Source: a virus (lineage: Duplodnaviria; Heunggongvirae; Uroviricota; Caudoviricetes). From it: DNA of 47,797 nucleotides. The translations under genes and the position numbers were made by a program. Numbering within the stretch: the first letter of the stretch is position 1; every line of letters starts with the position of its first letter. A model generated the notes under the pieces. It searched no databases. It was given only the letters and a program-made list of their open reading frames with translations, and was not told the DNA's origin. The stretch is taken from the IMG/VR virus record IMGVR_UViG_2571042438_000008. One strand, written 5' to 3'. Below are positions 1 through 47,797 of the stretch, one piece after another.

Positions 1-289
1 GGTTGAAGATGTAGTAAATAGCTTGGGTGGAGAGGTAAACATAACAGAATGGTTTGAAACATCACCACCTGGCGAACCATATACAGCCTCAATTGTTGCT
101 TCGATTAACTCTTTTGATGGTGCTGTTCCTTCGAAAGAGATGTTGGAGGATACGTTAAGAAGTATCAAGAGTGCAAAGTCGGCAAGAACACTATTTACAT
201 TTTCGCAAGCAACCAATGTTTCAGGTGGTGTTGGTATTGTCGGTGCTTTCCAGCCTGTGTCTTATGTACGATTAATTGGTGAGTGCTAA
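1..289 (+). CDS. 3' end of P2 gpI-like baseplate protein gene; continuation of 47254..47797 across the circular junction (1..251 duplicates 47547..47797)
   Basis: In-frame continuation of the ORF open at the window end; motif NITEWFETSPPGEPY resembles the P2 gpI family as recalled; stop at 287-289. Confidence 0.6.
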   Translation, partial: VEDVVNSLGGEVNITEWFETSPPGEPYTASIVASINSFDGAVPSKEMLEDTLRSIKSAKSARTLFTFSQATNVSGGVGIVGAFQPVSYVRLIGEC

Positions 290-319
290 TTTGCGATTTG
301 TTAATCCAAGGAATTAAGC

Positions 320-3166
320 GTGAGTAAATTATTATTTACGATGACTGACGCCGGGCGTAAGGCGCTGGTTAATGCCAACAAGACTGGAACAAATAAAGTT
401 GAGATCGTTTCTGTTGGTTTAGGTAGTAGATATTATGCCACATCAACCACACAAACAAAAATAACAGATGAAATAAAGCGACTTACCACAATAGGAGGCA
501 AAGTCGTTTCTCCTGATACCATTCATGTAACTGCGAAGGATGATAGTAAAGATGAGTATGCTGTCCATACAATAGGTTTGTATACAAATAAAGGAACATT
601 GTTTGCTGTATACTCGCAAGAACAAGTAATAATAAATAAAGCATCTTCTACAATTGCTTTAATATCAAGTGATATAGCAATTAAAAATCTTGATACTAAA
701 AACATTACATTTGGTGATGTTGAGTTTATTAACCCTCCCGCAACCGAAACTGTTGTTGGAGTAGCAAGATTTGCTAATGAACAAGAAATTGATGCAGGTA
801 CAGATGATTCCCTGGCTGTTTCAGCAAAGCGGCTTAAGCAAGCTATTGTAAAACATGAGCAATCACGTAATCATCCTGATGCAACTTTAACATCAAAAGG
901 CATTGTTCAACTCAGTAATGCCACCAATAGCACGTCTGAAAAGCTCGCAGCGACGCCTAAGGCTGTTAAGGCTGCATATGACCTGGCTGACGGAAAATAT
1001 ACCGCCCAGAATGCCACCACGGCACAAAAAGGGATAGTTCAGCTCAGTAGTGCCACTAACAGTACGTCTGAAACGCAGGCGGCAACGCCAAAAGCGGTCA
1101 AGGCAGCAAATGACAACGCAAATTCACGTCTGGCGAAAAATCAGAACGGTGCAGATATCCAGGATAAATCAGCTTTTCTGGACAATGTTGGCGTTACCAG
1201 CCTGACGTTTATGAAAAACAATGGCGAAATGCCGCTTGATGCTGATCTGAATACGTTTGGTCCTGTTAAGGCTTATTCAGGTATCTGGTCTAAAGCAACA
1301 TCCACCAACGCAACACTGGAGAAAAATTTCCCGGAAGATAATGCTGTCGGTGTGCTTGAGGTTTTTGCTGCCGGCAATTTTGCAGGTACGCAACGCTTTA
1401 CCACGAGAGACGGCAATGTATACATGCGTAAACTCGCCAATAAGTGGAATGGCACTGATGGTCCGTGGGGCGTATGGCGTCACACTCAATCTGCTACCCG
1501 CCCTTTGAGTACGACTATAGACCTGAATACGCTTGGAGCCGCCGAGCATCTTGGTTTATGGCGTAACAGTAGCTCAGCTATAGCTTCATTTGCCCGCAAT
1601 TATCCGGAAGAAGGGAGCTATGCTCAGGGGATTCTCGAAGTTCTTGAAGGCGGCGGATATTCGCGAACACAGCGTTACACTACCAGTCGTGGAAATATGT
1701 ATGTACGCTGCCTTACCGCAAGCTGGGATGCATCAAATCCGCAGTGGGGACAGTGGCTAAGAATCGGCAGCCAGACTGCAAGCGGTTTCTTTGAAGGCGA
1801 TCTGAATAATCTGACCGATCCTGGTATTTACAGTGTTACAGGAAAGGCAACAAACGGTCCGATGCTGGACGCTGCTGGGGCGACATTGCTTGGGATACTG
1901 GAAGTAATCAGGCGTTTTGATGGTGTATCTGTCTGGCAGCGTTACACAACCACAGGAAAATCAGAAACCACACAGGGGCGCACTTTTGAGCGCGTCTACG
2001 CCGGGAGCACATGGACCGAATGGCGAGAAGTGTATAACTCCTTTTCGTTGCCCCTGAATCTGGGTATTGGCGGCGCAGTGGCAAAACTCACCAGCCTGGA
2101 CTGGCAGACCTACGACTTTGTGCCGGGCAGTCTGATAACCGTTCGGCTTGATAACATGACCAACATTCCCGACGGTATGGACTGGGGCGTCATTGATGGT
2201 AACCTGATAAACATCGCTGTTGGCCCAAGTGATGATACCGGTACGGGGCGCTCAATGAAGGTATGGCGCAGCACTGTAAGTAAAGCCAACTACCGCTTTT
2301 TTATGGTGCGCATTTCAGGAAATCCGGGAAGCCGCACGATCACAGCAAGACGAGTACCAATCATTGACGAAGCCCAGACATGGGGCGCGGAACAGACATT
2401 CAGCGGTGGTCTTTCAGGCGAACTATCCGGCAATGCTGCTACAGCAACAAAGCTGAAAACGGCAAGGACAATTAACGGCGTAAAATTTGACGGCTCGGCA
2501 AATATTGAAGCGTTTCCGCCAGGTGTTCCGCTGCCGTGGCCATCAGATACGCCACCTGCAGGTTATGCAATCATGCAGGGGCAGACGTTTGATAAGGCAG
2601 CATATCCGAAACTGGCTATTGCCTATCCTTCTGGTGTTATTCCAGATATGCGCGGCTGGACAATCAAGGGCAAACCCGCCAGTGGTCGGGCCGTATTGTC
2701 TCAGGAACAGGATGGCATTAAATCGCACACCCACAGTGCCAGCGCATCCAGTACGGATTTGGGTACGAAAACCACATCGTCGTTTGATTACGGTACTAAA
2801 TCAACGAATAACACAGGTGCACATACCCACAATGTATCTGGTACTGCAAATAGTGCTGGCGCACATACTCATACCGTTCCATTAAGGAGACCAAACAGTG
2901 GCGGTATGAATTTCGACTGGCTGGATGGTTCATCAAGTGGCACGGTGGTGGGGAATGGAACTGTGCCTTCTTCTGGCGCACATACCCACTCAGTATCAGG
3001 TACCGCTACAAGTGCTGGGGCACATGCACACACTGTTGGTATTGGCGCTCATACGCACTCTGTTAAGATTGGTTCACATGGACACACCATCACCGTTAAC
3101 GCTGCTGGTAACGCGGAAAACACCGTTAAAAACATCGCATTTAATTATATTGTGAGGCTTGCATAA
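320..3166 (+). CDS. Tail fiber protein (P2 gpH / Mu S-like), 948 aa
   Basis: Position after the gpJ/gpI baseplate genes; two copies of the phage tail fibre repeat ([25 protein letters not shown]); three beta-rich internal repeats; C-terminal His-rich GAHTH.V repeats. Confidence 0.85.
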
Positions 3167-3783
3167 TGGCATTCAGAATGAGTGAACAATCACGTACCGT
3201 AAAAATTTATAACCTGCTGGCCGGAACTAATGAGTTTATTGGTGAAGGTGACGCATATATTCCACCTCATACAGGGCTGCCAGCTAATTCTACAGATATC
3301 GCCCCACCGGAAATTCCTGCTGGCTTTGTGGCAGTTTTTAACAGTGAAAATGAATCGTGGAATATTGTTGAAGACCATCGTGGTAAAACGGTCTATGACG
3401 TGGCGTCGGGGGACGCATTGTTTATTTCTGAACTCGGACCGCTACCAGAGAATGTCACCTGGTTGTCGCCAGCAGGGGAGTATCAGAAGTGGGACGGCGT
3501 ATCCTGGGTGAATGATGAGGAAGCAGAAAAACTGTTTCGGATACGGGAAGCGGAAGAGAAAAAGGCAAGGTTGATCCAGGAAGCAACAGATAACATCGCA
3601 ATTCTGCAGGATGCAGTTAATCTTGAAATAGCAACAAACGAGGAAAATTCACAACTGGATTCCTGGAGAAAATACAGAGTATTAGTGAGTAGAATTGACA
3701 CCAGTACAGCTCCGGATATCGTATGGCCAGAGCTGATGAATCAGGGTTATGTTCGGGAGGACGAGCAGATAACTTCAGACTGA
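3166..3783 (+). CDS. Tail fiber assembly protein (gpG/Tfa-like)
   Basis: Start overlaps the fiber stop (TAATG); size and position typical of Tfa chaperones. Confidence 0.65.
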
Positions 3784-4310
3784 AATTTAGTGATGAATGT
3801 TGAATCATCAGGAATATCATGCAATACCAATGCATGAGCACCTATTGTGACATTGTTTCCTATACGCACTTTGCCACCAAGAATGGTGGCATTACAACCA
3901 ATGGTCACATTATGCCCTATAACAATATCCATATCATTAAATTCCCCGCGAAGTCCAATAGTTACTCCGGGCTTAATTGAACAATTTTCACCGATTGTTA
4001 CTTTGTGACCGATAACAACACTGTTGAGATAAGAAATATCAAAGCCTTTCCCTATATTTACAGTTAAAGGGACTGTTACATTATATTTATCAAGAATGAA
4101 ACGTTCTATTTTTCCCGCAATCTTCCGACAGTATCCGCCTTTATCAAAAAGGTATTTGGCTATGCGCCACCAAAATAAATAACGAACCCTTCTATGTTTT
4201 ATTGCGCGAACAATTGCCTTTCGCCAGGAGAAAGGACGCTCGCTACCGATTACTTCATAGTGAATACAGTCTTTAAGTTCATTAATATTCATATCTTTAT
4301 TATTCAGCAT
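3747..4310 (-). CDS. Hexapeptide-repeat (left-handed beta-helix) acetyltransferase, moron-like
   Basis: Repeated [LIV]-G-x-x-x-x hexapeptides ([47 protein letters not shown]); opposite strand to the tail operon. Confidence 0.6.
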
Positions 4311-4725
4311 AAGATAATCATGTGACCAATTATTGTAATAATTTTAATGGTATGTTTCTACTGGCTATCCAGCGTGTCTGATATCCAGTAACAAATCGTC
4401 AACACGGGTGCAATCAAATGGTGAGTGTTAAGACTGACCACTTATTACCAGGTATGAGTGGCCAGCATTAAATCAGAACAGCCCTTTAACTGAACTGGCC
4501 GCGCTGTTAAGGGATGATGTCACCTTATCTTTGAAGCCGGACAGCATATTGCTGAACGATGAGTTTACCGCAGGTTTCTGGCTGGGAATCATTGACTGGA
4601 GTTAGGCCAGTAGTATGATGCTCGCAAAACGAGATCCAATTTAGATCCTTTTACTGGTGGATTATCGTTCGATCAGTGAGAGACTTCGTGCATGACCGAA
4701 AGTGTTGTGGTAGAGTTCTCTTAAA

Positions 4726-4740
4726 ACCACGTAACGTGGT
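4726..4740. promoter_or_regulatory. Repressor-type operator dyad ACCACGTAACGTGGT in the repA upstream region
   Basis: Perfect 5-N5-5 inverted repeat identical in arms to the three dyads in the cI/cro-like intergenic region; followed directly by TATGAT (4741-4746). Confidence 0.5.
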
Positions 4741-4780
4741 TATGATTGTGGGTGTCTGGTTGGAAAGTGACCAGATATGG

Positions 4781-4861
4781 AAACAAAAAGCCCGCAGATA
4801 AATCTGCGGGCTTCTTGCGACATCCACGGAAAACCAACAACTAACCATGGGCGCCTCGACA
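4781..4861 (-). ncRNA. Candidate CopA-like antisense RNA of the repA leader (~80 nt)
   Basis: Minus-strand perfect -10 TATAAT (plus coords 4868-4873) with weak -35; minus-strand intrinsic terminator (10-bp GC-rich stem 4789-4812 followed by a U-run); lies inside a 16-bp inverted repeat of the leader (4823-4838 / 4875-4890). Confidence 0.45.
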
Positions 4862-4905
4862 ACTCCCATTATACGTTGGTTTTCCGTGGACGCAAGAGCG
4901 AACAT

Positions 4906-5754
4906 ATGGATAGACCAATGCCGTCTCTACGTTCAGCTTACGTTTGTAATTTGTCGCCGGAGTTCCAGCCTCCAAAGCACCATACGCACAAGCTGCCGCT
5001 GGTGTTATCTGATGCTTTACAGCGCATTAATGGGCGTGATCTTACGTGTGAGGTTGCGTTCTACGTTAATCAACCGTCAGAGCGGAAGCGCCGGATAAAC
5101 GAGCATCGTCGTCGGGCGATTAATGCTGTGATCGCTGCGATTTTGCACCATGTAAACATCATTTCTAAGCGGGTTCTGGCCAGTGCTGAGGCGTTGGCTG
5201 ATTTTTGCGGCCTGTCTACCGTATCCGAAGCTGGGAACAAGTCTATAACGCGCTGTACAAGGGCGTTGTCGCAACTGAAAGCGTTAGGTTTTATTGATTA
5301 TGAACGTCGCTGGGATCGGGTGAATAAACAGTATTGGCCAGCGAAAATAGAGATTCGTGATCAACTGCTGGAAACCGTTGGTATTACTGAACAAGCATGG
5401 AGACGTGCGGTTAGCCAGAAACTTAATTACTTCAATGCGAAGAATAGCGAACGGCTTAAAAAAGCGATAACGGAGGCTGATTATAAGCGTATTGTTATTC
5501 AGGAGCAGATGGAGAATGTATGGCATCAGAGGAAGACGGCCAGAGAGATAAAGGCAAAACAGAAAGCAGCGGAGAGAGCTGCGCGTCTTGTTCGGGAAAA
5601 GGGAGAGGCCGAACTTCGTCATCAAATCACTAGAGAGGTTAGCCAGGAATTTGCTGATGGCATGTATCCTGGAGCTGACCTTGCATATTTACGATCCCTC
5701 GTTGAGCAGCGTTATAACAGGTTAAGAAAGACCTGGAAATCACTCCAACATTAA
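4906..5754 (+). CDS. repA: Replication initiator RepA, IncFII (RepFIIA) family
   Basis: Translation aligns with R100/R1 RepA1 as recalled (RRRAINAVIAAIL..., SITRCTRALSQLKALGFIDYE vs SITRATRALTFLSELGLITYQ); start chosen at the in-frame ATG 4906 by length; the ORF is open upstream to 4777. Confidence 0.85.
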   Translation: MDRPMPSLRSAYVCNLSPEFQPPKHHTHKLPLVLSDALQRINGRDLTCEVAFYVNQPSERKRRINEHRRRAINAVIAAILHHVNIISKRVLASAEALADFCGLSTVSEAGNKSITRCTRALSQLKALGFIDYERRWDRVNKQYWPAKIEIRDQLLETVGITEQAWRRAVSQKLNYFNAKNSERLKKAITEADYKRIVIQEQMENVWHQRKTAREIKAKQKAAERAARLVREKGEAELRHQITREVSQEFADGMYPGADLAYLRSLVEQRYNRLRKTWKSLQH

Positions 5755-5895: not shown

Positions 5896-5904
5896 TTATC
5901 CACA
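5896..5904 (+). promoter_or_regulatory. DnaA box TTATCCACA in the candidate oriR downstream of repA
   Basis: Perfect 9-mer consensus ~140 bp after the repA stop in an AT-rich tract, followed by a GC-rich hairpin cluster (6004-6200). Confidence 0.5.
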
Positions 5905-6385
5905 GTTTTGATATGTATATGCAAATGGTTTTTTATAATAGATGCACTAAACAAATAAATGCAAAATCACTTTCTTTTATTAAGACTTTCTTTATTTAAC
6001 TTACGCAGGCTTTGCCTGTGAATATGTTCGCCCTTGCAGCGAGCTAAAGCTCGCGCCGGTTCGAGTCGCTACGCTCAAATATACCTCCTCCGGCACTTGC
6101 CGGAGGCATGGAGCAGCCTGATCATCCTTTTCGAAACGGCGCGTTTCGAACTATACAAAATCAATTTATATAAGGCCGAAATAAGGCCTACGGCCGGGCT
6201 TTGCAGGAGGAAGGGGCGAGCCTTATCAATAAACGTCGAGAAATACGCACACAGTAGCCATCAGAACGCGATAAAACGTAAGAAACATCATTTCCTATTA
6301 GACATAGAAAACTTGTCTTATACGCAATGTAGTAAATTTCTATTGCCACATAGGAAAAGATTTCCTACCATCGTAGATATAATAA

Positions 6386-7113: not shown

Positions 7114-7141
7114 GGTGCCGATAACGTCCATTATGTTAAAT
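7114..7141. other. Xer (XerC/XerD) site-specific recombination core, dif/cer-like multimer resolution site
   Basis: GGTGCCGATAA-CGTCCA-TTATGTTAAAT; right arm identical to the dif XerD arm, left arm 9/11 to the dif XerC arm, 6-bp spacer. Confidence 0.6.
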
Positions 7142-7216
7142 AGCCCCGTTTTTCTTGAAATTATAACCCACAGGTTATATAGTTAGTGATATAAACTACA
7201 GGTTATAGGATTGAGC

Positions 7217-7564
7217 ATGTGGACGGTACTTTTTAGCCAGCGATTTGACGACTGGCTAAATGAGCAAGAAGACGCTCTTCAGGAAAAGGTTTTGGCTGAT
7301 TTGAAAAAGCTACAGGTTTACGGACCTGAGTTACCCAGGCCATATGCCGATACCGTAAAAGGTTCTCGGTACAAAAATATGAAAGAGCTTCGCGTTCAGT
7401 TTTCTGGCCGTCCGATAAGAGCCTTTTATGCGTTCGATCCGATTCGTCGGGCCATCGTTCTTTGTGCAGGAGACAAAAGTAACGATAAGCGGTTTTATAA
7501 AAAACTGGTGCGTATAGCTGAGGATGAGTTTGCAGCACATCTGAACACACTGGAGAGCAAGTAA
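7217..7564 (+). CDS. Type II toxin, HigB/RelE-like (addiction module killer family)
   Basis: ~115 aa basic protein immediately upstream of, and overlapping (TAATG), an XRE-HTH antitoxin-like gene; AGGA RBS before ATG 7217. Confidence 0.55.
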   Translation: MWTVLFSQRFDDWLNEQEDALQEKVLADLKKLQVYGPELPRPYADTVKGSRYKNMKELRVQFSGRPIRAFYAFDPIRRAIVLCAGDKSNDKRFYKKLVRIAEDEFAAHLNTLESK

Positions 7565-7863
7565 TGAGAACATTAGATGAGGTGATTGCCAGCCGTTCAC
7601 CTGAAAGCCAGGCGCGAATTAAAGAAATGGCAGATGAGATGATTCTTGAGGTCGGCTTGCAGATGATGCGTGAAGAACTCCAGTTATCACAAAAACAGGT
7701 TGCTGAGGCGATGGGTATAAGCCAGCCAGCAGTAACAAAGCTGGAGCAGCGCGGAAATGATTTAAAGCTGGCGACATTAAAGCGTTACGTTGAAGCTATG
7801 GGAGGCAAATTAAGCCTGGATGTTGAGCTTCCTACAGGAAAGCGAGTAGCGTTCCATGTCTAA
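7564..7863 (+). CDS. Type II antitoxin, HigA-like XRE-family HTH
   Basis: HTH segment LSQKQVAEAMGISQPAVTKLE; 99 aa; toxin-first gene order. Confidence 0.6.
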   Translation: MRTLDEVIASRSPESQARIKEMADEMILEVGLQMMREELQLSQKQVAEAMGISQPAVTKLEQRGNDLKLATLKRYVEAMGGKLSLDVELPTGKRVAFHV

Positions 7864-8335: not shown

Positions 8336-8448
8336 TATTTATATAATTATAGATTTATATAAAAAGTGCTTTACGGGTGGGAAAAAATTTCCTATGGTTA
8401 TACCCGAAACCGAGCGATACCCGCCCTGGTTAAACCGGAGATAACCCG
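8336..8448 (+). promoter_or_regulatory. Promoter-leader cassette, copy 1 (AT-rich dyad motif, -35 TTTACG 8370-8375, 17-nt spacer, -10 TATGGT 8393-8398, conserved leader, GGAGA RBS)
   Basis: ~88 bp near-identical to 17311-17398 and 24189-24276 (two substitutions seen in this copy); sigma70-like hexamers with 17-bp spacing. Confidence 0.55.
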
Positions 8449-8829: not shown

Positions 8830-8892
8830 ACACAATGCGCAAAGTGTCATTTTGACACTTTGCGAGTGTTAATATTGTTCGAGGAGGATGCT

Positions 8893-11399: not shown

Positions 11400-11658
11400 T
11401 CGAGGCTAATCAAATGGTGGTGAGCCGTACAGGGTTAGCCTTACCGGACACAATGACGAACCGGCGCGGATTTCTCCGCCCCTGTACGACCCACCATAAT
11501 TTGGGCGTAACAGTGCTCTACGCATAAAAAAACCGCTAACGCGGTATGCGCCATCGTGTTATTCAGGAGGCTAATCCCGGCCGTAGATTTTGCTACGGCT
11601 CGGAAAGTGTCCACCAATGGCGCATTTATGTCAATACGGCGGGATTTTAACAGAGACA

Positions 11659-12239: not shown

Positions 12240-12245
12240 CGATTA

Positions 12246-35721: not shown

Positions 35722-35741
35722 TATAAAGAGGTCGTATTTTT

Positions 35742-38295: not shown

Positions 38296-39758
38296 TGGGA
38301 TATCGCCACGGTATTTATATATCTGAGCTGGCTACATCTATAACTCCTCCAGTACAAGTTAGTGCTGGGTTGATTGTCGCATTTGGTACAGCTCCTGTTA
38401 ATCAGTTAGAAGATCCAGCCTCAGCGGTAAATAAACCTATCATTGCTTATACATACGCAGAGGCCGTATCTAAAATAGGATATAGCACAAACTTCGAGAA
38501 ATATACTTTAAGCGAAGTAATTAAAGTCGCATTTGGAATATATGGTGTTGCGCCAGTTGTATTTATCAATGTGCTTGATCCAGCAAAGCATAAGAAAGAC
38601 GTAACTGATGAGGTAGTAAAACTTTCTGGCGGGAAAGGTACGCTCTCTAACGATGGTGTCTTATATAAATCTGTTGTTGTGAAAAAAGCAGATGGTGATT
38701 CGGCAGGGTTAACGGTTGATACCGATTATGTGCTGGCGCTGGATGATAATGGCTATACGGTCATTACCGCTATTAGCGGAGGAAAAATTACCGAAAAAGA
38801 CGCTACTCTTAAGGTTAGTTATACACATCTTGATCCCGGTGCCGTAACTAAAAATGACATTATCGGTGGTGTGGATTCCAACACTAAAGCCAATACAGGG
38901 CTTGAGTTACTGTCTGATGTGTATCCCCGCTTCAAGTTGGTTCCTGGACAAGTGATTGCGCCTGGATTTAGTTCTGATAGTGAAGTTGGTCAGCTAATGG
39001 CGGCTAAAGCCGCGTTGATTAGTGAATTGTTCAAAGCAGAAGCCATAACTGATGCACCGACCGATAAATCTACTATCAGTGATTACTCGGCTGTTCCTGA
39101 ATGGAAACAGAACAATAATCACATGGCCGCTAACCAGACAGTGTGCTGGCCGATGGTGAAACTTGGTGACAATATTTACCATCACTCAACCCATTTAGCG
39201 GCCGCAACATGCTTGCTGGATAGTCAGTATGGCGATATTCCATCACGTTCTCCGTCAAATATAAAACTACAGATGGACGGTGCTGTACGTAAAGATGGCA
39301 GTGAAGTATGGCTTAACATTAGCCAGGCAAACTACTTAAATGGACAGGGGATTGTAACAAGCCTTAATTTTGATGGTTGGAAATCATGGGGAAACCGTAA
39401 TGCTATTTATCCAACATCTACAGACCCCAAAGACGCATTTCGTGTTTGCCGACGTATGTTTAACTGGGTGGGTAATACGTTAATTCTTTCGCATTGGTCA
39501 AAAATAGACAATCCTGCAAACCGTCGATTAATTGAATCGATTGTTACAAGTGCGAATATTTGGCTTAACGGCCTCACAGGTAATCAGGATATTGCAGGTG
39601 GTGTTGTTACCTTTGATCAGTCTGAAAACACGATTACGTCATTGATGGACGGGATTGTTAAATTCCATGTAAAAATGACACCATTCTCACCTGCCAGAGA
39701 TATAGAGTTCGTCATGGAATATAATCCTGATTATCTGCTGAACTTGTTTTCTGAATAA
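38295..39758 (+). CDS. Tail sheath protein
   Basis: 487 aa; precedes tube and chaperone/tape-measure genes. Confidence 0.75.
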   Translation: MGYRHGIYISELATSITPPVQVSAGLIVAFGTAPVNQLEDPASAVNKPIIAYTYAEAVSKIGYSTNFEKYTLSEVIKVAFGIYGVAPVVFINVLDPAKHKKDVTDEVVKLSGGKGTLSNDGVLYKSVVVKKADGDSAGLTVDTDYVLALDDNGYTVITAISGGKITEKDATLKVSYTHLDPGAVTKNDIIGGVDSNTKANTGLELLSDVYPRFKLVPGQVIAPGFSSDSEVGQLMAAKAALISELFKAEAITDAPTDKSTISDYSAVPEWKQNNNHMAANQTVCWPMVKLGDNIYHHSTHLAAATCLLDSQYGDIPSRSPSNIKLQMDGAVRKDGSEVWLNISQANYLNGQGIVTSLNFDGWKSWGNRNAIYPTSTDPKDAFRVCRRMFNWVGNTLILSHWSKIDNPANRRLIESIVTSANIWLNGLTGNQDIAGGVVTFDQSENTITSLMDGIVKFHVKMTPFSPARDIEFVMEYNPDYLLNLFSE

Positions 39759-39774
39759 ATAATAGGAGGTTGCT

Positions 39775-40296
39775 TTGAGCAATCAAATTCCTGAGAGACT
39801 TATTAACTTTACAGTATACGGTGAGGGAAACCGTATTATCGGTGTTGCTGACGCAAAGCTGCCATCAATTGAGATGATGACAGAAACTGTTAGTGGTGCA
39901 GGTATCGCTGGAGAGCTTGATAGCGGAACGCTGGGGCATTTCAAACCAATGACTGTCTCTCTTAAATGGCGAACTCTGACCTCTGCTGGTACAAAATTAT
40001 TTCTATCCTCATCGCATCAGGTAGATTTTCGCGGTAGCCAGCAGGTTTATGATGCCGGAACAGGAAAATATAAAACGGTTCCTATTCGAGCTTCAATGAA
40101 GCTAAATCCTAAAAAACTGGATTTGGGTTCGCTACAGGTAGCAAAGGCCACTGATTCAGAAAATGAATTCGAAGTTCTCTATATCAAATTATTTATTGAT
40201 GGGAAAGAAGTCTTAGAAATTGATAAGTTGAACTTTATTTGTATCTTTGATGGCGAAGATATATTAAAAACTGTTCGTGATGATTTAGGTTTATAA
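39775..40296 (+). CDS. Tail tube protein
   Basis: 173 aa; between sheath and chaperone. Confidence 0.65.
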   Translation: MSNQIPERLINFTVYGEGNRIIGVADAKLPSIEMMTETVSGAGIAGELDSGTLGHFKPMTVSLKWRTLTSAGTKLFLSSSHQVDFRGSQQVYDAGTGKYKTVPIRASMKLNPKKLDLGSLQVAKATDSENEFEVLYIKLFIDGKEVLEIDKLNFICIFDGEDILKTVRDDLGL

Positions 40297-40305
40297 GGTG
40301 AAAAA

Positions 40306-40587
40306 ATGGAAACCGTTAAATTAAGTAAAGAATATCGTTTTGAAGACTTTGAGCCAGTGACTGAACTCAACCTTGATTTAGACAACCTAAAAGGCAGTGA
40401 TATTTTAGAGGTATCGGACTTACTGCAATCTCAAGGGCATGTTTCAGTTCAAACATCACTTGATAATAAAGTCCATGCAGCCTTGGCTGCTCGCTGTATT
40501 GGTCGTCCAATAGAGTATCTGAATGGATTACCAGCGAAAGACTTTGTTAAAGTTTGTCAAAAGGTACAGAATTTTTTGCTCTCGTAG
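40306..40587 (+). CDS. Tail assembly chaperone (gpE/gpG-like), frame-0 product
   Basis: Small acidic protein directly upstream of the tape measure gene; slippery T_TTT_TTG at 40572-40578. Confidence 0.6.
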   Translation: METVKLSKEYRFEDFEPVTELNLDLDNLKGSDILEVSDLLQSQGHVSVQTSLDNKVHAALAARCIGRPIEYLNGLPAKDFVKVCQKVQNFLLS

Positions 40588-40736
40588 GTTTTGATGAGCA
40601 AAAACCTATTGATAAGCAAATAATGAGGGCCGCGAGTTCTCTATCTCAATCATCTCAATCAACACCTATATCCTACTGGCTTTCGCTTCGGTTGAGGCGA
40701 ATCGTCGCATGGATTGACGTGTTTAATGAGGATTAA
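40554..40736 (+). CDS. Tail assembly chaperone -1 frameshift extension (gpE+E'/gpGT-like)
   Basis: Overlapping -1 frame ORF continuing from the slippery heptamer to 40736. Confidence 0.45.
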   Translation: MSKGTEFFALVGFDEQKPIDKQIMRAASSLSQSSQSTPISYWLSLRLRRIVAWIDVFNED

Positions 40737-40741
40737 TACTA

Positions 40742-43534
40742 ATGGCCAGCAATAAGAACTTTAAGCTGGCTTTTGAAATTGGCGGCAAAGTTGCCGCCTC
40801 TCTCCCCAAAAGTTTTACTACAGCTAATCAGGCTGTTGCTAAATTAAATGCCGAGCTTGCTGGATTAACGAAAGAACATGGGGAAATTCAAAAGCTACAA
40901 TCTGTAAAAGTAAAGGTTGGACAGACTGCCCTCGAATATCATAAAGCTGCCGCTCGCGTTGAAGAGTTACAGAAGCAAATAAAAAACACGGCCAATCCAA
41001 CCAGAGCGATGCTTCGTGACTTTGAGAAGGCAAAAACACATTCATCGAATTTACGAGCATCACTACGTTCTCAGCGTGAAGAACTGGCCGCTTTAAAGTC
41101 TGCCTATCAGGGAGCTGATACATCTGCCAGAGCTTTGGCCTCAAGAGAGAAAGAGCTTAAAGCCAGCATTGATCGTAATCGTGAGGCTCAGGCCCGTAGC
41201 GTTGAGCAGGTTAACCGCTACAGAACGGCTTTGGCTTTAGCCAGAGCAAATGTTCAGCAAGTGAAAAAACAGCAGGAGGAACTTAACCGGGCATTAGAAA
41301 AACAACGTATTGATAAAATTAACAGCTATAAAAATGCGTTGGCTGAAGCACGGAAAAATGTTCTTGCAGTAAAACGTGCTCAGGAGGAGTTAAACCGCGC
41401 GTTGGAAAGGCAGCGTGAATTGAAGCGAGAGCATCTTGGTGAGGCAAAGAGTCAACTTGTAAGGTCAGGATTACAAACTGGTGCTGTAGCGGCTGGTGCA
41501 TTTGCTGCTGCTAACAATGCAGCAAATTTCAATCGTGAAAACAAAATGATTGGTCTTACGGCAGATATGAAGCCGGAAGAAGTTCAGGCGATGGGGCAGG
41601 CGATGCTTGTTACCGGAACGGCTACCAACCAGTTTGCATCTGATATTCAGGCCGCTCAGGGTTTTCTCGTCGCTGCTGGGCAGGATTATAAAGAGGCTCA
41701 GGCGAATCTACTAACTATTGGGCGAACAGCTACAGCTACTGGCTCTGATATCCTCGATGTCTCGAAAGCATCATTTACATTAAGTGACTCATTGAAGATT
41801 GATCCATCTCAAATGAAGTCTGCAATGGGGATTCTGGTTCAGGCAGGGAAAGAGGGGAACTTTGAATTTAAAGATATGGCCAAAAATCTTCCTGTGCTTG
41901 GTGCTCAGTTCCAGGCATTAAAAATGGGAGGTAAAGAAGCAGCCGCGACGATGGGTGCAGCTTTGCAGATAGCTCGCAAGGGGGCTGCAACTTCGGATGA
42001 GGCTGCTAATAATATGAACAACTTTTTGGCAAAAATACTTTCCCCTGAAACACTAAAAAAAGCAAAGAAAAATTTCGGTGTAGATTTATATAAAATTGTT
42101 ACAACAGCGCAGAAAAAAGGGAAGAATCCATTCGAAGCTGCAATGCATTCTGTCATGAAAATGACTAAGAACGGAGATCAGAAGTTACTTGGTGAACTAT
42201 TTGGCGATATGCAGGTTCAGAACTTTGTTCGTCCGATGATTCAAAACTGGAAGGAATACCAGAGAATCAAAGCAACATCTCTTGGAGCTGGAAGTGCTGT
42301 TATTGACCGCGATTTTGCCAACATAACGAAAGATAATGCGGAGCGATTGAAACAATTACGTATTCAGGCTAGCAATGCATCATTAAGTTTTGGTCAGGCC
42401 TTGCAACCTGCTTTGAATGCCGCGCTTAGTGTTTTGGTTCCGCTGATTACAAAAATTAGTGAATTTGTAGCTAACAACCCCAATTTTGTGTCTCAGATAG
42501 TGATGGCGGCAGGTGCGTTTCTAACCATGAAAAGTGTGGTTATAGCGTGTAGGGTAGCTATGCTGGCTTTATCTGTAGCGACAAAGCTAACACCCTTCGG
42601 GTGGATTCAGATGGCTATATCTGCGCTGGTTGCCGCAGGAATATTGCTCTATCAGAATTGGGATAAGATCAGAGATTATGCTGTCAGAGTTTGGCCTTCT
42701 GTTAAGGAATATACAGTTAAATCATTTGAGGCTATAAAAAACTTTATCTTAAACTTTGACCTCAATGGATGGATTATATCTATGTTTGGTAAAGCATGGG
42801 ATTATCTTTCCAACATAAACTGGAGTTCGGCAGGTGTAAGAATTTACAGTACATTAATTAGTGCTTTTAAATGGATGTCTCCGCTTCCGTTCTTAATTAA
42901 AGCATTTAAAATTACAACAAATTACCTTTCTGGCATTAACTGGAGCGAAACAGGAAAGAAAATCATAGATACACTGGTATCTGTTTTTATGCGTTTTTCA
43001 CCAGTTGGACTCTTTATAAGAGCATTCCAATCTGTAACGACTTATTTATCTGGAATAAACTGGAGTGAGTCAGGCGCAAAAATAATTGAGACGTTAATCA
43101 CTGGGATAAAATCAAAAGCAAATGCTTTAATTAATGAAGTGAAAGGCGTTTTTTCTTCTGTACGTGAGTATTTACCGTTCTCTGACGCGAAAAAAGGTCC
43201 ATTCTCACAGCTAACAAAGTCAGGTGGTGCAATAATGACTACTCTGGCATCAGGTGTTAGCAGGAATAACAGCTTACAGAATGCAATAGCAAGCAAGTTC
43301 GGGCAATCAAATTTATCACCTCACGGGATATCTGCCGCCGGGACTTCTGGACCTCGCCAGAACGTTAACGCTGTGACTGGTGGAATAACCTATTCACCTG
43401 TAATCAATCTTCCGGCTGGTTCACCAAAGGAAACTGAGGCGGCAGCTAAAAGAGCATTAGATGCGGGATATTCTGATTTTGAGAAGAAATTGAGTGCTCA
43501 TATGTTCCAACAACGGAGATTAAGTTTTGGATGA
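40742..43534 (+). CDS. Tail tape measure protein
   Basis: 930 aa; long coiled-coil-like N-terminal half, hydrophobic segments, repeated W-containing motifs (GINWSE). Confidence 0.85.
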   Translation: MASNKNFKLAFEIGGKVAASLPKSFTTANQAVAKLNAELAGLTKEHGEIQKLQSVKVKVGQTALEYHKAAARVEELQKQIKNTANPTRAMLRDFEKAKTHSSNLRASLRSQREELAALKSAYQGADTSARALASREKELKASIDRNREAQARSVEQVNRYRTALALARANVQQVKKQQEELNRALEKQRIDKINSYKNALAEARKNVLAVKRAQEELNRALERQRELKREHLGEAKSQLVRSGLQTGAVAAGAFAAANNAANFNRENKMIGLTADMKPEEVQAMGQAMLVTGTATNQFASDIQAAQGFLVAAGQDYKEAQANLLTIGRTATATGSDILDVSKASFTLSDSLKIDPSQMKSAMGILVQAGKEGNFEFKDMAKNLPVLGAQFQALKMGGKEAAATMGAALQIARKGAATSDEAANNMNNFLAKILSPETLKKAKKNFGVDLYKIVTTAQKKGKNPFEAAMHSVMKMTKNGDQKLLGELFGDMQVQNFVRPMIQNWKEYQRIKATSLGAGSAVIDRDFANITKDNAERLKQLRIQASNASLSFGQALQPALNAALSVLVPLITKISEFVANNPNFVSQIVMAAGAFLTMKSVVIACRVAMLALSVATKLTPFGWIQMAISALVAAGILLYQNWDKIRDYAVRVWPSVKEYTVKSFEAIKNFILNFDLNGWIISMFGKAWDYLSNINWSSAGVRIYSTLISAFKWMSPLPFLIKAFKITTNYLSGINWSETGKKIIDTLVSVFMRFSPVGLFIRAFQSVTTYLSGINWSESGAKIIETLITGIKSKANALINEVKGVFSSVREYLPFSDAKKGPFSQLTKSGGAIMTTLASGVSRNNSLQNAIASKFGQSNLSPHGISAAGTSGPRQNVNAVTGGITYSPVINLPAGSPKETEAAAKRALDAGYSDFEKKLSAHMFQQRRLSFG

Positions 43535-43745
43535 TTATAGAACGGTTCAAGGGGACTCATGGGATAGTATCGCTTTAAAGTTGTATGGTAATGAGTACCT
43601 GTCTTATCTTCTTATTGATGCTAATACTGAGCACCGCTTTACGGTGCTTTTTTCTGCGGGAATTATTCTTAAAGTTCCTGATGCTCCGGTTATGCCAATA
43701 TCAGTAAACAATTTTCCTCCGTGGAGACGCAATAGTGTTACGTAA
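43527..43745 (+). CDS. Tail protein X (LysM-like, P2 gpX-like)
   Basis: 72 aa; YRTVQGDSWDSIALKLYG resembles gpX/LysM. Confidence 0.55.
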   Translation: MDDYRTVQGDSWDSIALKLYGNEYLSYLLIDANTEHRFTVLFSAGIILKVPDAPVMPISVNNFPPWRRNSVT

Positions 43746-44736
43746 AACGCTTTTTGATGTTATATATCAGAATGTAAATATTACCGCTCATATGTCACCT
43801 GATGTTTTGTCAATGTCTTATACAGATAATGAAGATGGTCAGGTCGATGATATTTCTATTATATTAAAAAATGATGATGGGAAATGGTCTGGAGACTGGA
43901 CACCTAAAAAGGGTGATTTTATTGATTTGAGCTTTAAGCCTATAAATCAAATCGTCCTTGAGTGCGGGAAATTCCAGGTAGATGGCATAACTTGCTCTGG
44001 ACCACCTTCTGTGGTTGAGGTAACTGCTGTTTCTGTTCCTATTTCATCAGGCATTAGACGTGATTTAAAAAGTAATGCATGGGAAAAAACAACTCTTAAA
44101 GATATAGCAACTTCTATAGCTAAATTAGCTAACCTTGAACTGTTGTTTCTTATTGATGGTGATAGTAATCCATATTATGCACGTGAAGATCAAATGGAGG
44201 AAAGCGATTTAAAATTTCTCCATCGACTTTGCCAGGATGAAGGGTTGTCGTTAAAGGTCACTGATAGCCAATTAATAATATTTGCTCAAGAGATGTTTGA
44301 GCAAAAAGATCCTATCGCTACGCTTACGTTAGGTATTGATGAGATAATCAGATATAGCTTTAGCACACAATCTACAGATTTGTATAAAAGTTGCACGTGC
44401 AAATATCGCGTACCTAAAAAAAGAAAGTCGCTTTCGTATACTTGGGTAGATCCATCCGTAGAAGAAGGGTCGAATCTTAAGATAAGAAAACTGGTAGCTA
44501 ATTTAGATGAAGCAAAACGTAAGGCAAAGGCTGCTTTGCGGCTTAAAAATAGATATCAAAATACCGGATCTTTAGTATTGGTTGGAGACACCAGATTGGT
44601 AGCTGGTGTAACTATAAATCTGGAGGGATTCGGTTCATTTTCTGGAAAATATCTTATATCGAAAGCTGTGCATTCAATTGGGACTAGTGGTTATACCACC
44701 TCGATTGATGTCCGAAGAGTAATTAATGGGTATTAA
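43735..44736 (+). CDS. Baseplate hub / late control D-like protein (P2 gpD-like)
   Basis: 333 aa; position after gpX-like; central EESDLKFLHRLCQDEGL resembles the gpD family as recalled. Confidence 0.65.
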   Translation: MLRKTLFDVIYQNVNITAHMSPDVLSMSYTDNEDGQVDDISIILKNDDGKWSGDWTPKKGDFIDLSFKPINQIVLECGKFQVDGITCSGPPSVVEVTAVSVPISSGIRRDLKSNAWEKTTLKDIATSIAKLANLELLFLIDGDSNPYYAREDQMEESDLKFLHRLCQDEGLSLKVTDSQLIIFAQEMFEQKDPIATLTLGIDEIIRYSFSTQSTDLYKSCTCKYRVPKKRKSLSYTWVDPSVEEGSNLKIRKLVANLDEAKRKAKAALRLKNRYQNTGSLVLVGDTRLVAGVTINLEGFGSFSGKYLISKAVHSIGTSGYTTSIDVRRVINGY

Positions 44737-44738
44737 TT

Positions 44739-45359
44739 ATGAATGATTTAGAAACATTATTACGTCAGACTATAAGAGTTGGCGTTGTTTCTGATATTGA
44801 TGATGGTGATGTTACAGCAAGAGTTACTTTCGATGATCAGGATAACGTCACTTCGGCAAAGTTATCAGTTATTGTGAAAAATACAGATAAGAATGCTGAT
44901 TACTGGATGCCAGATATTGGTGAGCAAGTTTTGTGTATCTTTCATCCCGCGGGGCCGCAACAAGGTTTTATTCTTGGTAGTTTTTATGATGAAACACAGA
45001 AGCCGCCATCTAATACTGTTAATAAACGCGTCATTAGATTTAATAACGGAACTCGTATTGAGATAGACAGAGAATCTAATTTACTCCTTGTTGATGCTGT
45101 CGGAGATGTAACCATTAAGGCTACAGGAACCGTAACTATTGATGCTCCAGAAACCATCATTACCGGAAATGCTACAGTTGAAGGATTACTAACCTTCAAA
45201 GGTGGAATGAAAGGATCTTCTGCTGGAGGTGTTGCAGCTACAATTTCTGGGAATGTTAAGGTTGTTGGTGGTGATATAGATGTTGATGGGATTAAATCTA
45301 AAGGCCACCATCACACAGCTCAGGGGGAATACGCTCCGACAACGGAGGCTCAGGCATGA
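44739..45359 (+). CDS. Baseplate spike (P2 gpV-like)
   Basis: IGEQVLCIF motif and Gly-rich C-terminal beta-helix-like repeats. Confidence 0.65.
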   Translation: MNDLETLLRQTIRVGVVSDIDDGDVTARVTFDDQDNVTSAKLSVIVKNTDKNADYWMPDIGEQVLCIFHPAGPQQGFILGSFYDETQKPPSNTVNKRVIRFNNGTRIEIDRESNLLLVDAVGDVTIKATGTVTIDAPETIITGNATVEGLLTFKGGMKGSSAGGVAATISGNVKVVGGDIDVDGIKSKGHHHTAQGEYAPTTEAQA

Positions 45360-45823
45360 TTGTGGGTATGCTTGGTACAATGCCTTTTGTTGCCTCATCA
45401 ATAGTGGTGAATACGTTCAACAATTTTAAAAGGACGTCAAAGCGTCGTGTAGCGCGCCATGATGTTATTGGGCTTAAACCTGTTCTGGAGGATATAGGTC
45501 CAGATCTGGATGAAGTTAGTTTTAATATGCGGTTGGATACAACACTTGGCATTGTTCCATTGGCTGCGCTTTCATTACTTAGGACAATGCAATCAATTCA
45601 GGAAGTAAATCCTGTTGTAATTGGTATTCAGTATTTTGGTAATTTTATAATTACAGATATAGAGGAATCATGGACTTATTTCGGTCCAACTGGGAATCCA
45701 CGAGTGATTATCGTCGGCATTAAATTACAGGAAGTCGGACAGACCTCTCTGAAAGAAGCATTAGTTGATATTGCTGGCAATATAGAGTCAAAAACTAGAA
45801 GTGCGTTAGGTAAATTATTATGA
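45356..45823 (+). CDS. Baseplate-associated protein (uncharacterised)
   Basis: 155-aa ORF between gpV-like and gpW-like genes. Confidence 0.4.
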   Translation: MIVGMLGTMPFVASSIVVNTFNNFKRTSKRRVARHDVIGLKPVLEDIGPDLDEVSFNMRLDTTLGIVPLAALSLLRTMQSIQEVNPVVIGIQYFGNFIITDIEESWTYFGPTGNPRVIIVGIKLQEVGQTSLKEALVDIAGNIESKTRSALGKLL

Positions 45824-46140
45824 ATAATACGTTTACCATATCATCACCTTCTTACTCGATTGATTGGTCGCCCAAAACAGTTGTAGAAGAAGTTTTGCAA
45901 AATGTCTCTACTATTATTAATACTCAAATTGGCACTGTACCATATGCCAGAAAATTAGGAATTAATTCAAGTCTTGTTGATAGCCCTAGTCCAATTTTTA
46001 TTGCTACAGCAACACGAGAAATAATTCAAAAAATTAGTGAGTTTGAGCCTAGAGCGATTATCCATTCTGTTACTTTTGAAAGAACGGACGTTTCTGATGG
46101 TTTTATTAGGCCAAAACTTGTGATAGGAGTTAGAGAATGA
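45820..46140 (+). CDS. Baseplate wedge protein (GPW/gp25-like)
   Basis: 106 aa; position before gpJ-like. Confidence 0.55.
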   Translation: MNNTFTISSPSYSIDWSPKTVVEEVLQNVSTIINTQIGTVPYARKLGINSSLVDSPSPIFIATATREIIQKISEFEPRAIIHSVTFERTDVSDGFIRPKLVIGVRE

Positions 46141-47261
46141 CGTTGCCGCGTGGTGGTTTGCCAGATATTACTTTCGCAGATTCTAACCCGACTGATATAA
46201 CAACTCGTTCAATCAGGGCTTTTGAGAGTATAACAGGTGAAACATTAGCACCTGCTGATCCACGTAGATTATTCATCTTATCATTGTGTGAGATTATTAT
46301 ACAGCAAAGAAAAGCTATCGATTTTTCTGCAAAACAAAACCTTCTTACATATGGTGAAGGTGAATATCTCGACCATATAGGCTATCTGACGGATACGCCT
46401 AGGCTGGAAGCTCAATCTGCCTTGACTACATTTGAGTTTAATCTGTCAACAAAATTATCGGGGATATATACAATACCTGCTGGCACTCAAGTTTCAACTG
46501 GAAATGGTGTTATTTTCCAAACAGATATTTTGTTGGAAATACCTGCTGGGAAAACAGTTGGTACAGTCTCAGGATATGCTGTTATACCTGGTTTATCTGG
46601 GAATGGCTTTTTACCAGGGCAAATAAATGAGTTGGTGACTCCGTTGCCGTATGTTTCCAGCGTAAGGAATGTAACAACATCTAATTCTGGTGCTGATACG
46701 GAGTCAGATGATAATTATGCTGAAAGAATAAAACTGTCGCCGGAAAAACTGTCTACAGCAGGGCCGGAGGATTCTTATAAATATTGGACAAGAACAGCCA
46801 ATCAGAATATAAAAGATGTGAATGTATATACACCATCGCCCGGAATTGTAGAAATCCGTTCTTTGTTAGAGAACGGAGATATACCTTCTAATGAACTATT
46901 AGAGCAGATAAATAGCGTTCTCTCTGCAACTAATATTCGACCATTCACAGATAAAGTTCTTGTTAAGAAACCAGAGAGCATTGAATACGATATAATAATT
47001 AAATACTGGATTAACTCATCGGACAAAAACAGAACAACTTTAATTCAAAGTGAGGTTGAGAAAGCTATTGATGAGTATAAACAATGGCAACGTTCGGTTA
47101 TGGGAAGAGATATAAATCCAGATGAAATTATTCAACGTTTAAAAAATGCTGGGGCTAAAAGATTAGAAATATCAAGTCCTGTTTTTACTGTGATTGGAGA
47201 GACACAGGTCGCCAGAGAGAGAAATATAAATTGCCAGTATGCGGGGTTAGAGGATGGCTGA
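46137..47261 (+). CDS. Baseplate protein J-like
   Basis: 374 aa; position before gpI-like and tail fiber. Confidence 0.7.
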   Translation: MTLPRGGLPDITFADSNPTDITTRSIRAFESITGETLAPADPRRLFILSLCEIIIQQRKAIDFSAKQNLLTYGEGEYLDHIGYLTDTPRLEAQSALTTFEFNLSTKLSGIYTIPAGTQVSTGNGVIFQTDILLEIPAGKTVGTVSGYAVIPGLSGNGFLPGQINELVTPLPYVSSVRNVTTSNSGADTESDDNYAERIKLSPEKLSTAGPEDSYKYWTRTANQNIKDVNVYTPSPGIVEIRSLLENGDIPSNELLEQINSVLSATNIRPFTDKVLVKKPESIEYDIIIKYWINSSDKNRTTLIQSEVEKAIDEYKQWQRSVMGRDINPDEIIQRLKNAGAKRLEISSPVFTVIGETQVARERNINCQYAGLEDG

Positions 47262-47797
47262 TATCTTTAATGTTAGCTTGTTGGATGTTTTACCTCCTAA
47301 CTTAGCTAGCGATCCCAACGTGATAGCTATGTCGAAAGCTATTGATGATGAACTACAAGCAATTAACAATTTAATATATAAGACAGAAATATATAGCGTT
47401 GTTGATAACCTGGACTCAGTTGTTCTCGATCATTTAGCTTGGCAATGGAATGCTGATACATGGAGGGATAGTTGGCCTGTATTGTTAAAGCGTTCTGTTT
47501 TTAAATCAATAATACGAACAAAGCGAATAAAGGGTACAAGGGCAGCGGTTGAAGATGTAGTAAATAGCTTGGGTGGAGAGGTAAACATAACAGAATGGTT
47601 TGAAACATCACCACCTGGCGAACCATATACAGCCTCAATTGTTGCTTCGATTAACTCTTTTGATGGTGCTGTTCCTTCGAAAGAGATGTTGGAGGATACG
47701 TTAAGAAGTATCAAGAGTGCAAAGTCGGCAAGAACACTATTTACATTTTCGCAAGCAACCAATGTTTCAGGTGGTGTTGGTATTGTCGGTGCTTTCC
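47254..47797 (+). CDS. Baseplate gpI-like protein, 5' part (open at window end; continues at 1..289 through the terminal duplication)
   Basis: ATG 47254 overlapping the gpJ-like stop; ORF not terminated within the window; frame matches 23..289. Confidence 0.65.
   Translation, partial: MADIFNVSLLDVLPPNLASDPNVIAMSKAIDDELQAINNLIYKTEIYSVVDNLDSVVLDHLAWQWNADTWRDSWPVLLKRSVFKSIIRTKRIKGTRAAVEDVVNSLGGEVNITEWFETSPPGEPYTASIVASINSFDGAVPSKEMLEDTLRSIKSAKSARTLFTFSQATNVSGGVGIVGAF
47547..47797. repeat. Terminal direct repeat: 47547..47797 is identical to 1..251
   Basis: Read directly: both begin ggttgaagatgtagtaaatagc and end gtcggtgctttcc. Confidence 0.9.

Follow-up and report, generated by a model that had tools for sequence, protein, structure and literature searches.

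How does a temperate tailed phage persist in its host if it encodes neither an integrase nor replication proteins of the lambda O/P type? This question is raised by the IMG/VR virus record IMGVR_UViG_2571042438_000008, a stretch of 47,797 nucleotides from a member of the Caudoviricetes, which was analyzed over its whole length and is referred to here as the window. Very probably, the window represents a complete and apparently intact phage-plasmid, i.e. a temperate myovirus that persists in the prophage state as a circular plasmid of low copy number. The genes by which such an element can be recognized are present, namely complete sets of virion, packaging and lysis genes together with a RepA initiator and ParA, while integration genes are missing. 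Family scans, which covered all predicted genes and all open reading frames (ORFs) of at least 180 amino acids except one antisense ORF inside the large terminase gene, returned no integrase, recombinase, transposase, O/P, DnaB/C, helicase-loader or primase family in any scanned gene.

Since its first 251 bases recur exactly at its end (positions 1-251 are identical to 47547-47797), the window corresponds to a circular contig whose ends overlap by 251 bp and whose unit length is 47,546 bp; tail gene I, which starts at 47253, runs through this overlap and ends at position 289 past the circle junction. Collinear with the rotated window is p142_C (NZ_CP048340.1), an E. coli plasmid of 47,545 bp, with the first difference at base 1406, and judged by this alignment both are the same, near-identical element. 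A megablast search against the plasmids of PLSDB yielded 63 records matching the virion half of the window; in 42 of these, the match extends over 80% or more of that half. These plasmids are almost all 46-52 kb in size, non-mobilizable and from Escherichia, with a few from Salmonella and one from Klebsiella aerogenes, and most of the records are labelled "unnamed" or annotated as ordinary plasmids. The lineage includes the 48.5-kb plasmid of strain ATCC 25922 (NZ_CP009073.1), pECO-b75 and RCS82_pI of ECOR-39, all with a backbone 97-99% identical. The same degree of backbone identity is found in three complete genomes of the phage collection, those of Yersinia phages vB_YpM_39, 41 and 44, which entered the databases as phage genomes (recorded host, Y. 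pestis EV76-CN) and to which the virion half of the window is 98.7% identical; two partial E. coli prophage records of this collection match as well. Among 5,426 complete E. coli genomes, the virion module occurs in 72 (92 of 93 places on plasmids, one chromosomal) and the replicon in 71 (all 82 places on plasmids, none chromosomal). The element is thus carried by about 1.3% of them, including ATCC 25922, a global reference for susceptibility testing, and ECOR-39. Indirectly, the plasmid-only places of the replicon and the closed circle point to an extrachromosomal state, and the original prediction of a phage-plasmid without integrase, transposase and O/P genes is upheld by these places and by the family scans alike. 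Relatives vary in cargo and variable segments as well as at about 8-12 kb, where the antirepressor and several small genes lie, and some carry insertion sequences (IS) or transposons (Tn) or are truncated to 31-39 kb. Two records are outsized (NZ_CP032086.1 with 94.2 kb and the IMG/VR contig L013 with 68.5 kb); together with the one chromosomal match of the virion module, they may represent dimers, cointegrates or an integrated relative.

As near-identical copies are already available in public databases, the sequence itself is not new, and the view that the combination of modules is an unrecognized one has to be given up in light of p142_C, the ATCC 25922 plasmid and the Yersinia phages. Judging from the searches made, it is rather as a phage-plasmid type that the lineage is apparently uncurated. 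None of the ten curated phage-plasmid types of tyPPing corresponds to it, and neither these types nor DNA and large terminase (TerL) matches revealed any clustering inside an already described group. P1 and SSU5 were found neither among the DNA matches of the window nor among its listed TerL relatives, and the suggested placement outside the P1, N15 and SSU5 groups stands on the same two kinds of match. In IMG/VR, a search with RepA returned close relatives only, while a scan of the GTDB species representatives with RepA found nothing. A literature search using phage names, accessions and plasmid names, short of some catalogue supplements and Gilcrease and Casjens (2018), gave no description of the lineage; in a bioRxiv paper naming vB_EcoM-613R2 and -473R2, the presence of a ParB gene is the sole remark on the point. 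Two candidates for an already described group were rejected: pSLy3 belongs to the SSU5 supergroup, and the "plasmid-like" Yersinia phage HQ103 is a different phage with a genome of about 32 kb.

Maintenance of the element appears to depend on a single replicon. Its RepA initiator (4906-5754, plus strand) matches PF02387 (IncFII_repA) with E = 1.2e-43. The annotated repA start at 4777 is likely placed 43 codons too early; in Salmonella relatives, the start corresponds to position 4918, the stretch 4777-4905 contains the target of an antisense RNA, and the true start is likely the ATG at 4906 or at 4918. Upstream, a promoter-like site on the plus strand (4592-4619; TTGACT and TATGAT separated by 16 bp), which is conserved in the Salmonella lineage, would give a repA leader of about 290 nt. 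Opposite this leader lies a candidate antisense (counter-transcript) RNA (4778-4873, minus strand) with an invariant TATAAT at 4873-4868 and an intrinsic terminator at 4818-4783 that runs into a stretch of T. A two-hairpin fold is predicted for the region (-69.5 kcal/mol, z = -9.7). Across lineages, pairing of the terminator stem is preserved through five double changes, and the long first hairpin (hairpin I) persists in the Citrobacter lineage with entirely different stem sequences and a conserved loop. Because of fold, terminator and stem covariation, antisense control of repA is well supported as a prediction; with no match to CopA, the RNA would not belong to the CopA family. A CopB gene or a tap-like leader peptide is not encoded by any ORF in 4310-4906. 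About 140 bp past the repA stop, an oriR-like region (5896-6000) combines an AT-rich stretch with the DnaA box TTATCCACA (5896-5904), the only perfect one of the window. A conserved GATC pair follows the repA promoter at 4633-4647. Two to three GATC (Dam) sites occupy that position in every lineage (L008, L019, L020, L022 and L023), a conjugative plasmid included, and their conservation hints at methylation-sensitive control of repA.

The term "IncFII replicon", as used in the original prediction, is overstated because RepA shares only 27-41% amino-acid identity over 29-67% of the protein with classical IncFII RepA and because MOB-suite assigned no replicon cluster to these plasmids. What stands is the PF02387 assignment together with the predicted antisense RNA, so the replicon would best be called IncFII-like in layout only. 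Within PLSDB, no plasmid outside the set with the virion module contains the repA DNA. In related lineages, RepA is 85% (Salmonella), 83% (K. aerogenes) and 60% (Citrobacter) identical to that of the window, and the maintenance and immunity backbone as a whole is conserved across the Escherichia, Salmonella, Klebsiella and Citrobacter lineages with RepA identities of 60-85%. Contigs from Citrobacter freundii and from Logan (L019, L020 and L022) share the chassis of repA, toxin-antitoxin, antirepressor, par and repressor genes, and carry tail genes of the true Mu family (DNA_circ_N, Mu_Gp45, GP46 and Mu_Gp48); this sister lineage additionally has a 162-aa RepA-N paralogue overlapping the start of repA. 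A further Logan contig of 21.9 kb, L023, carries a 63%-identical RepA on a VirB-type conjugative plasmid, behind two Xre-type helix-turn-helix (HTH) genes; hence, this RepA clade is not exclusive to phage-plasmids. The plasmid with the next-closest RepA in PLSDB outside the lineage (36%), from Enterobacter, was discarded as a relative of this kind: with a type IV secretion system and resistance genes, it does not qualify as a phage-plasmid.

Lysogeny is presumably governed by a cI-like repressor (14054-14710, minus strand) with an N-terminal HTH_3 domain and a C-terminal part matching S24-like peptidases below threshold. Where self-cleaving repressors read GDSMxPT, this protein reads DELMSPT, and Leu-Met in place of Ser-Met makes self-cleavage doubtful; the Citrobacter homologue, which reads Leu-Leu at this position, also appears to have no catalytic serine. 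Probably, the repressor is thus not self-cleaving. The adjacent switch region (14748-14865) contains operators at 14748-14762, 14830-14844 (two mismatches) and 14851-14865, of which the two-mismatch one lies inside a PR-like promoter made up of TTGAAA (14822-14827), a 17-bp spacer and TTTAAT (14845-14850). With up to one mismatch, the underlying palindrome ACCAC-N5-GTGGT occurs seven times in the window against 0.81 expected by chance. Regulatory spacers account for five of the seven copies (the switch region for two, the par-side operon, the C4/antirepressor promoter and the repA leader for one each); the remaining two are inside coding sequence and not conserved in relatives. On the par side, the operator-type palindrome (13997-14011) is found just upstream of a conserved 124-aa gene (13587-14011, minus strand).

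It is the copy in the repA leader (4726-4740), with the same motif as the cI operators, that would link replication to immunity. In the Salmonella and K. aerogenes lineages, the half-sites of the operators are kept and the five central bases differ. The leader operator is of the ACCAC-N5-GTGGT type in the Escherichia, Salmonella and Klebsiella lineages, whereas the heteroimmune Citrobacter lineage, whose repressor is 30% identical to that of the window, has ACTAC-N5-GTAGC at the window-equivalent distance from the conserved TAGAGTTC. The switch region differs in the same sense, with six GTGGT and no GTAGT half-sites in the window compared to one and four, respectively, at the Citrobacter locus. 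At the Citrobacter locus L020, TTGTAGT occurs five times in the switch region, and its sole other copy in 20.8 kb is located in the repA leader. This joint change of leader and immunity operators is the best evidence for binding of the repressor at the repA leader and suggests that the prophage repressor gates plasmid replication.

A second immunity module resembling immI of P1 was overlooked in the original prediction, as were a timP-like toxin locus and a gpU-family tail gene. It extends on the minus strand over 9976-11673 and comprises an operator-like site (11659-11673), an isrK-like RNA (11599-11526), a C4 antisense RNA (11501-11413) and, downstream of the latter, a 75-aa ORF (11399-11172) and an antirepressor with ORF6N and Rha domains (11175-9976). 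The C4 RNA matches RF01695 with 70.8 bits compared to a gathering score of 45. In P1, immI is likewise laid out as C4 antisense RNA, small ORF and antirepressor. Read from its gene order, the module is P1-immI-like by layout, and homology of the 75-aa ORF to icd forms no part of the case. Induction via the antirepressor appears likelier than via self-cleavage of the repressor.

The virion genes form one continuous block on the plus strand. It opens with a ParB-like nuclease (29446-30036), followed by the small terminase subunit (TerS; 30027-30587), assigned by its match to PHROG 57, and by TerL (30593-32449), which is of the lambda gpA type with GpA_ATPase and GpA_nuclease domains (PF05876/PF20454). 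Head and head-tail joining genes (32461-38295) then encode an adaptor, portal, protease, decoration protein, capsid and four connector or completion proteins. The proposed lambda-like head is confirmed in its gene order A-W-B-C-D-E, its gpA-type TerL, its portal of the lambda family (PF05136) and its Phage_cap_E major capsid protein (PF03864), whereas several of the individual assignments fail: TerS has no match to Nu1 and no hit at all in the Pfam scan, the protease is ClpP-type (PF00574) and, unlike lambda C, matches S49 only below threshold, and the decoration protein matches gpD weakly (19.7 bits compared to a cut-off of 29.1). The gene in the W position encodes a head-tail adaptor of the DUF6148 family. 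Contractile tail genes (38295-47797) follow in the order sheath, FII tube, chaperone, tape measure, X, D, V, U, W, J and I, and end with tail fibre gene H (320-3166, plus strand), whose middle part shows 85-92% DNA identity to P2-like phages, and, directly after it, fibre assembly gene G (3166-3783, plus strand). Matches to PF04985, PF06995, PF05954, PF04717, PF04965 (weak), PF04865 and PF09684 place the tail proteins (tube, U, D, V, W, J and I) in the P2 family. Sheath and tube genes precede the baseplate and fibre genes, which is the Mu arrangement; in P2, the baseplate and fibre genes lie ahead. To our knowledge, the tail is best described as P2-family proteins in Mu order, so that of the P2/Mu-order tail claimed before, the genes listed and their P2 family stand, while the order is that of Mu and not of P2. 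Similarly, the GC content is indeed low in the tail module as stated, though the drop (0.38-0.44) spans the entire virion module (about 31-47 kb), and the P2-like fibre gene has a higher GC content again.

Packaging sites can be narrowed down by comparison. The deposited Yersinia phage genomes begin at either of two window positions separated by 12 nt, 29033 and 29045. Vibrio phage X29 has a left genome end that resembles window 29044-29066. These shared starts and the likeness to the X29 end point to a candidate cos site with 12-nt overhangs at 29033-29045, inside a candidate cos region at 29033-29100; downstream of the site, 12-mer repeats are found at 29071-29099. X29 and its relatives phi 2, Rostov 7 and vB_VpaM_XM1 possess this virion module with an unchanged gene order from the nuclease through the fibre, with TerL 63% identical to that of the window for X29 and 63-65% across the X29 group; the annotators of X29 had already remarked on the likeness to the E. 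coli plasmid proteins. X29 differs in that two integrases, an O-like initiator and a DnaC-like loader are annotated, and no plasmid RepA, ParA or toxin-antitoxin genes. As the head and tail unit is shared with this integrative phage, it is an old unit that can be found with either lifestyle, and the idea of a fresh mosaic is thereby contradicted.

Combining these features, a life cycle of the element can be proposed. Virion DNA would be linear, its cos ends being generated near 29033-29045 by the gpA-type terminase, and would circularize after injection. RepA would then initiate replication at the DnaA-box/AT-rich origin downstream of repA, with the antisense RNA limiting RepA in the manner of IncFII plasmids. 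Segregation of the copies may be accomplished by ParA and its partner via AT-rich 8-bp repeats and resolution of dimers by Xer, while HigBA, and perhaps timP, would penalize plasmid loss. Lysogeny would be held by the cI-like repressor at the ACCAC-N5-GTGGT operators of the early promoter, the par-side operon, the C4/antirepressor promoter and the repA leader. Induction would probably proceed via the antirepressor rather than via self-cleavage of the repressor, and loss of the repressor would also free repA, giving one replicon for both plasmid maintenance and lytic replication. That the repressor gates repA through a leader operator which tracks the immunity type, and that the lineage forms a distinct, so far uncurated phage-plasmid family, is a joint reading which we put forward tentatively, its probability falling a little short of even.

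Other explanations of the element as a whole were considered. A cryptic or defective plasmid prophage, still maintained and no longer producing infectious particles, would agree with the many records filed as "unnamed" or ordinary plasmids and with relatives that are interrupted by IS or Tn or shortened to 31-39 kb; as all structural, packaging and lysis genes of the window are full-length with end-to-end family matches and its virion half is 98.7% identical to that of deposited Yersinia phages, this explanation is very improbable. Weighing in the same direction as such doubts is that virion formation and the plasmid state of this particular copy are deduced from its relatives and from the closed circle. 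Very improbable, too, is a recent chimera assembled from an IncFII plasmid backbone, a lambdoid prophage and a P2/Mu tail module. The GC content differs between the modules, an exchange of the fibre gene with P2-like phages is evident, RepA shares its Pfam family with IncFII initiators, and a 63%-identical RepA resides on a VirB-type conjugative contig. Against this, the head and tail unit has the same order in X29 (TerL 63%), the repA DNA is confined to plasmids that carry the virion module, the maintenance and immunity backbone is conserved over four genera (RepA 60-85%), and identity to classical IncFII RepA amounts to merely 27-41%. Already contradicted, and hardly worth any credence, is the view that an integrative phage was captured in its excised circular form or as a virion genome with terminal redundancy closed by the assembler: the 251-bp overlap would also be expected of a circularly permuted or redundant genome and one of the 93 virion-module matches in complete E. 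coli genomes is chromosomal, but neither integrase nor excisionase appeared in the family scans, while a full set of replication, partition, Xer and toxin-antitoxin functions is present and the replicon is found at 82 plasmid places and no chromosomal one.

Less easily dismissed, although still unlikely, is the explanation that the leader palindrome serves RepA autoregulation or is bound by a CopB-like repressor, its resemblance to the cI operators being coincidental. Promoters of the IncFII repA type do have a repressor, CopB in the case of R1, the palindrome is not obviously inside a strong promoter, and only two operator types could be compared. On the other hand, no CopB-like gene is present upstream of repA in the window, and apart from the cI-like repressor the only repressor-like genes found with Pfam are two HTH_3 proteins, the HigA-like one and the short ORF 8860-9024. 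Furthermore, the motif is identical to the switch operators (seven copies compared to 0.81 expected), and in Citrobacter both loci show the same half-site shift, GTGGT being replaced by GTAG. Several observations nevertheless weigh against repressor-gated replication under antisense control as proposed here. The joint operator change rests on just the two operator types mentioned, and the leader site could bind RepA or another regulator. The -35 element of the antisense promoter is weak, and CopA of Rfam, sought twice, to the gathering score and to E values up to 10, gave no match. The apparent absence of the catalytic serine from the repressor was judged by eye from aligned motifs. With 17 found compared to 13.8 expected, LexA boxes show no enrichment in the window and provide no SOS link for the antirepressor. 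Finally, the first two genes of the early operon might hide a lytic replication function; the first one encodes 164 amino acids without any HTH hit, and its structure model reaches a pLDDT of only 38.

Stable inheritance is served by further loci. The partition locus (12491-13564, minus strand) encodes ParA (13451-12783), identified by family match, and an 82-aa partner (12739-12491). Of the ParA/ParG-like system proposed before, ParA is thus confirmed, while the partner is ParG-like in size, position and predicted architecture only: it gave no ParG hit in Pfam and no sequence match in the PDB, and its structure model (pLDDT 74) consists of a disordered N-terminus and two helices for which Foldseek returned no significant match. 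The model is at most compatible with a ParG-like ribbon-helix-helix protein. Runs of an AT-rich 8-bp repeat flank the par pair at 13460-13564 and 12755-12775 and are candidate centromeres. Arrays of this kind (TATAAATC / TTATATAA type) lie in several intergenic spacers beyond the surroundings of parA, the full set being 8337-8359, 12755-12775, 13463-13564, 17286-17320, 23031-23064 and 24168-24197; these scattered arrays could be centromere sites or sites of a global regulator. The Xer site postulated from the sequence was retrieved as a cer/dif-like site at 7114-7141 (plus strand; GGTGCCGATAA-CGTCCA-TTATGTTAAAT) with a perfect XerD arm and a 6-bp spacer, a quality for which zero sites are expected by chance, and it probably serves in multimer resolution. 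Likewise, the HigB/HigA-like pair was recovered on the plus strand as a HigB-like toxin of the Gp49 family (7211-7564) and a HigA-like HTH antitoxin with family match (7564-7863). Beside it, the timP-like locus may be considered a candidate type I toxin system. It consists of a ryfA/timP-like RNA (11971-12267, plus strand; RF00126, 141.8 bits) with a 40-codon hydrophobic ORF at 12117-12239, i.e. +147 to +269, which is where the TimP toxin ORF sits: in timPR, this ORF has been located at about +145 to +261 of the ryfA RNA (PMC7667032). PADLOC reported nothing beyond the methyltransferase and weak hits of toxin-antitoxin type.

Rightward of the switch, an early operon (14885-21045, plus strand) encodes two unassigned proteins, a Ref-type RecA-dependent nuclease, DUF1064, DUF3560, MarR-like and Ead/Ea22-like proteins; the family scans recognized no replication initiator in it. 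The lambdoid character ascribed to the early region therefore holds for the cI-like repressor and the lysis cassette; the supposed cro-like gene has no HTH hit, and in place of nin-like genes Ref, DUF1064, DUF3560 and Ead/Ea22 are found. The DUF3560 protein was considered as a hidden primase or initiator and rejected. It has no relative in the PDB, and because its homologues are fused to ArdC-N and polyvalent-protein domains, it looks more like an establishment or anti-restriction factor than an initiator. Lysis is encoded by a cassette at 21424-22906 (plus strand) with two holins, a GH108 endolysin carrying PG_binding_3 and an Rz-like spanin. Between this cassette and a methyltransferase gene, a tRNA-Met gene with CAU anticodon is located at 23200-23275 (plus strand), which is also annotated in Yersinia phage vB_YpM_39. 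Orphan methyltransferases and small unassigned genes occupy 23584-28152 (plus strand), among them an MT-A70 gene (23584-24171), a ParB_N protein (26156-26779) and a protein combining ParB_N with a methyltransferase (26773-28152), and the orphan methyltransferases probably provide anti-restriction functions. The MT-A70 gene is absent from the listing of p142_C in the PLSDB gene table. At the other side of the fibre genes, a hexapeptide-repeat acyltransferase (3747-4310, minus strand) takes a slot in which the ATCC 25922 plasmid, the Yersinia phages and the Salmonella plasmids have a Hin-type invertase together with a second, inverted gene for fibre assembly. With this possible surface-modification cargo gene in place of invertase and second assembly gene, the window copy has a fixed fibre.

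Compared to known systems, the element resembles P1 in its contractile tail, its plasmid prophage, its two-part immunity (main repressor on the one hand, C4 RNA and antirepressor on the other) and its Ref-type nuclease, and the invertible fibre segment of P1 has its counterpart in relatives of the window. The main repressor of P1 also controls the P1 lytic replicon. The window, however, has no DNA or TerL similarity to P1 and is about half its size. Moreover, it combines cos/gpA packaging with a lambda-type head, and it relies on a single IncFII-like replicon and Xer where P1 uses an iteron replicon plus repL and Cre-lox. N15 employs one RepA for plasmid as well as lytic replication, placed under control of the prophage repressor, and is induced via an antirepressor, which is the very design proposed for the window element. 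Yet N15 is a siphovirus with a linear plasmid and a protelomerase, a family absent from every scan of the window, and the RepA families are unrelated. The IncFII plasmids R1 and R100 share with the window a PF02387 RepA, an antisense RNA opposite the leader and a DnaA-box/AT-rich origin just past repA, but they possess CopA, copB and the tap leader, none of which was found in the window, whose RepA is divergent. In R1, the repA promoter is under control of the CopB repressor. SSU5, pSLy3 and pHCM2, with genomes of about 100-110 kb, are, like the window lineage, enterobacterial phage-plasmids often reported as cryptic plasmids; unlike it, they are classed as Siphoviridae and typed IncFIB, and none of the three came up among the DNA or TerL matches of the window.

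As the lineage is absent from the ten curated types, surveillance pipelines will label the element as a cryptic plasmid. It is ordinary as sequence and under-studied as biology. If repressor gating of repA holds true, the replicon would be damped by antisense RNA and repressor, resulting in a low copy number during lysogeny and runaway replication after antirepressor-driven induction, and a single replicon of this kind would account for the absent O/P-type genes. One maintenance and immunity chassis carries two different tail modules, a P2-family one and a true Mu-family one. With 47 kb and a single replicon, the element would offer a compact model for the coupling of the lysis-lysogeny switch to copy-number control.

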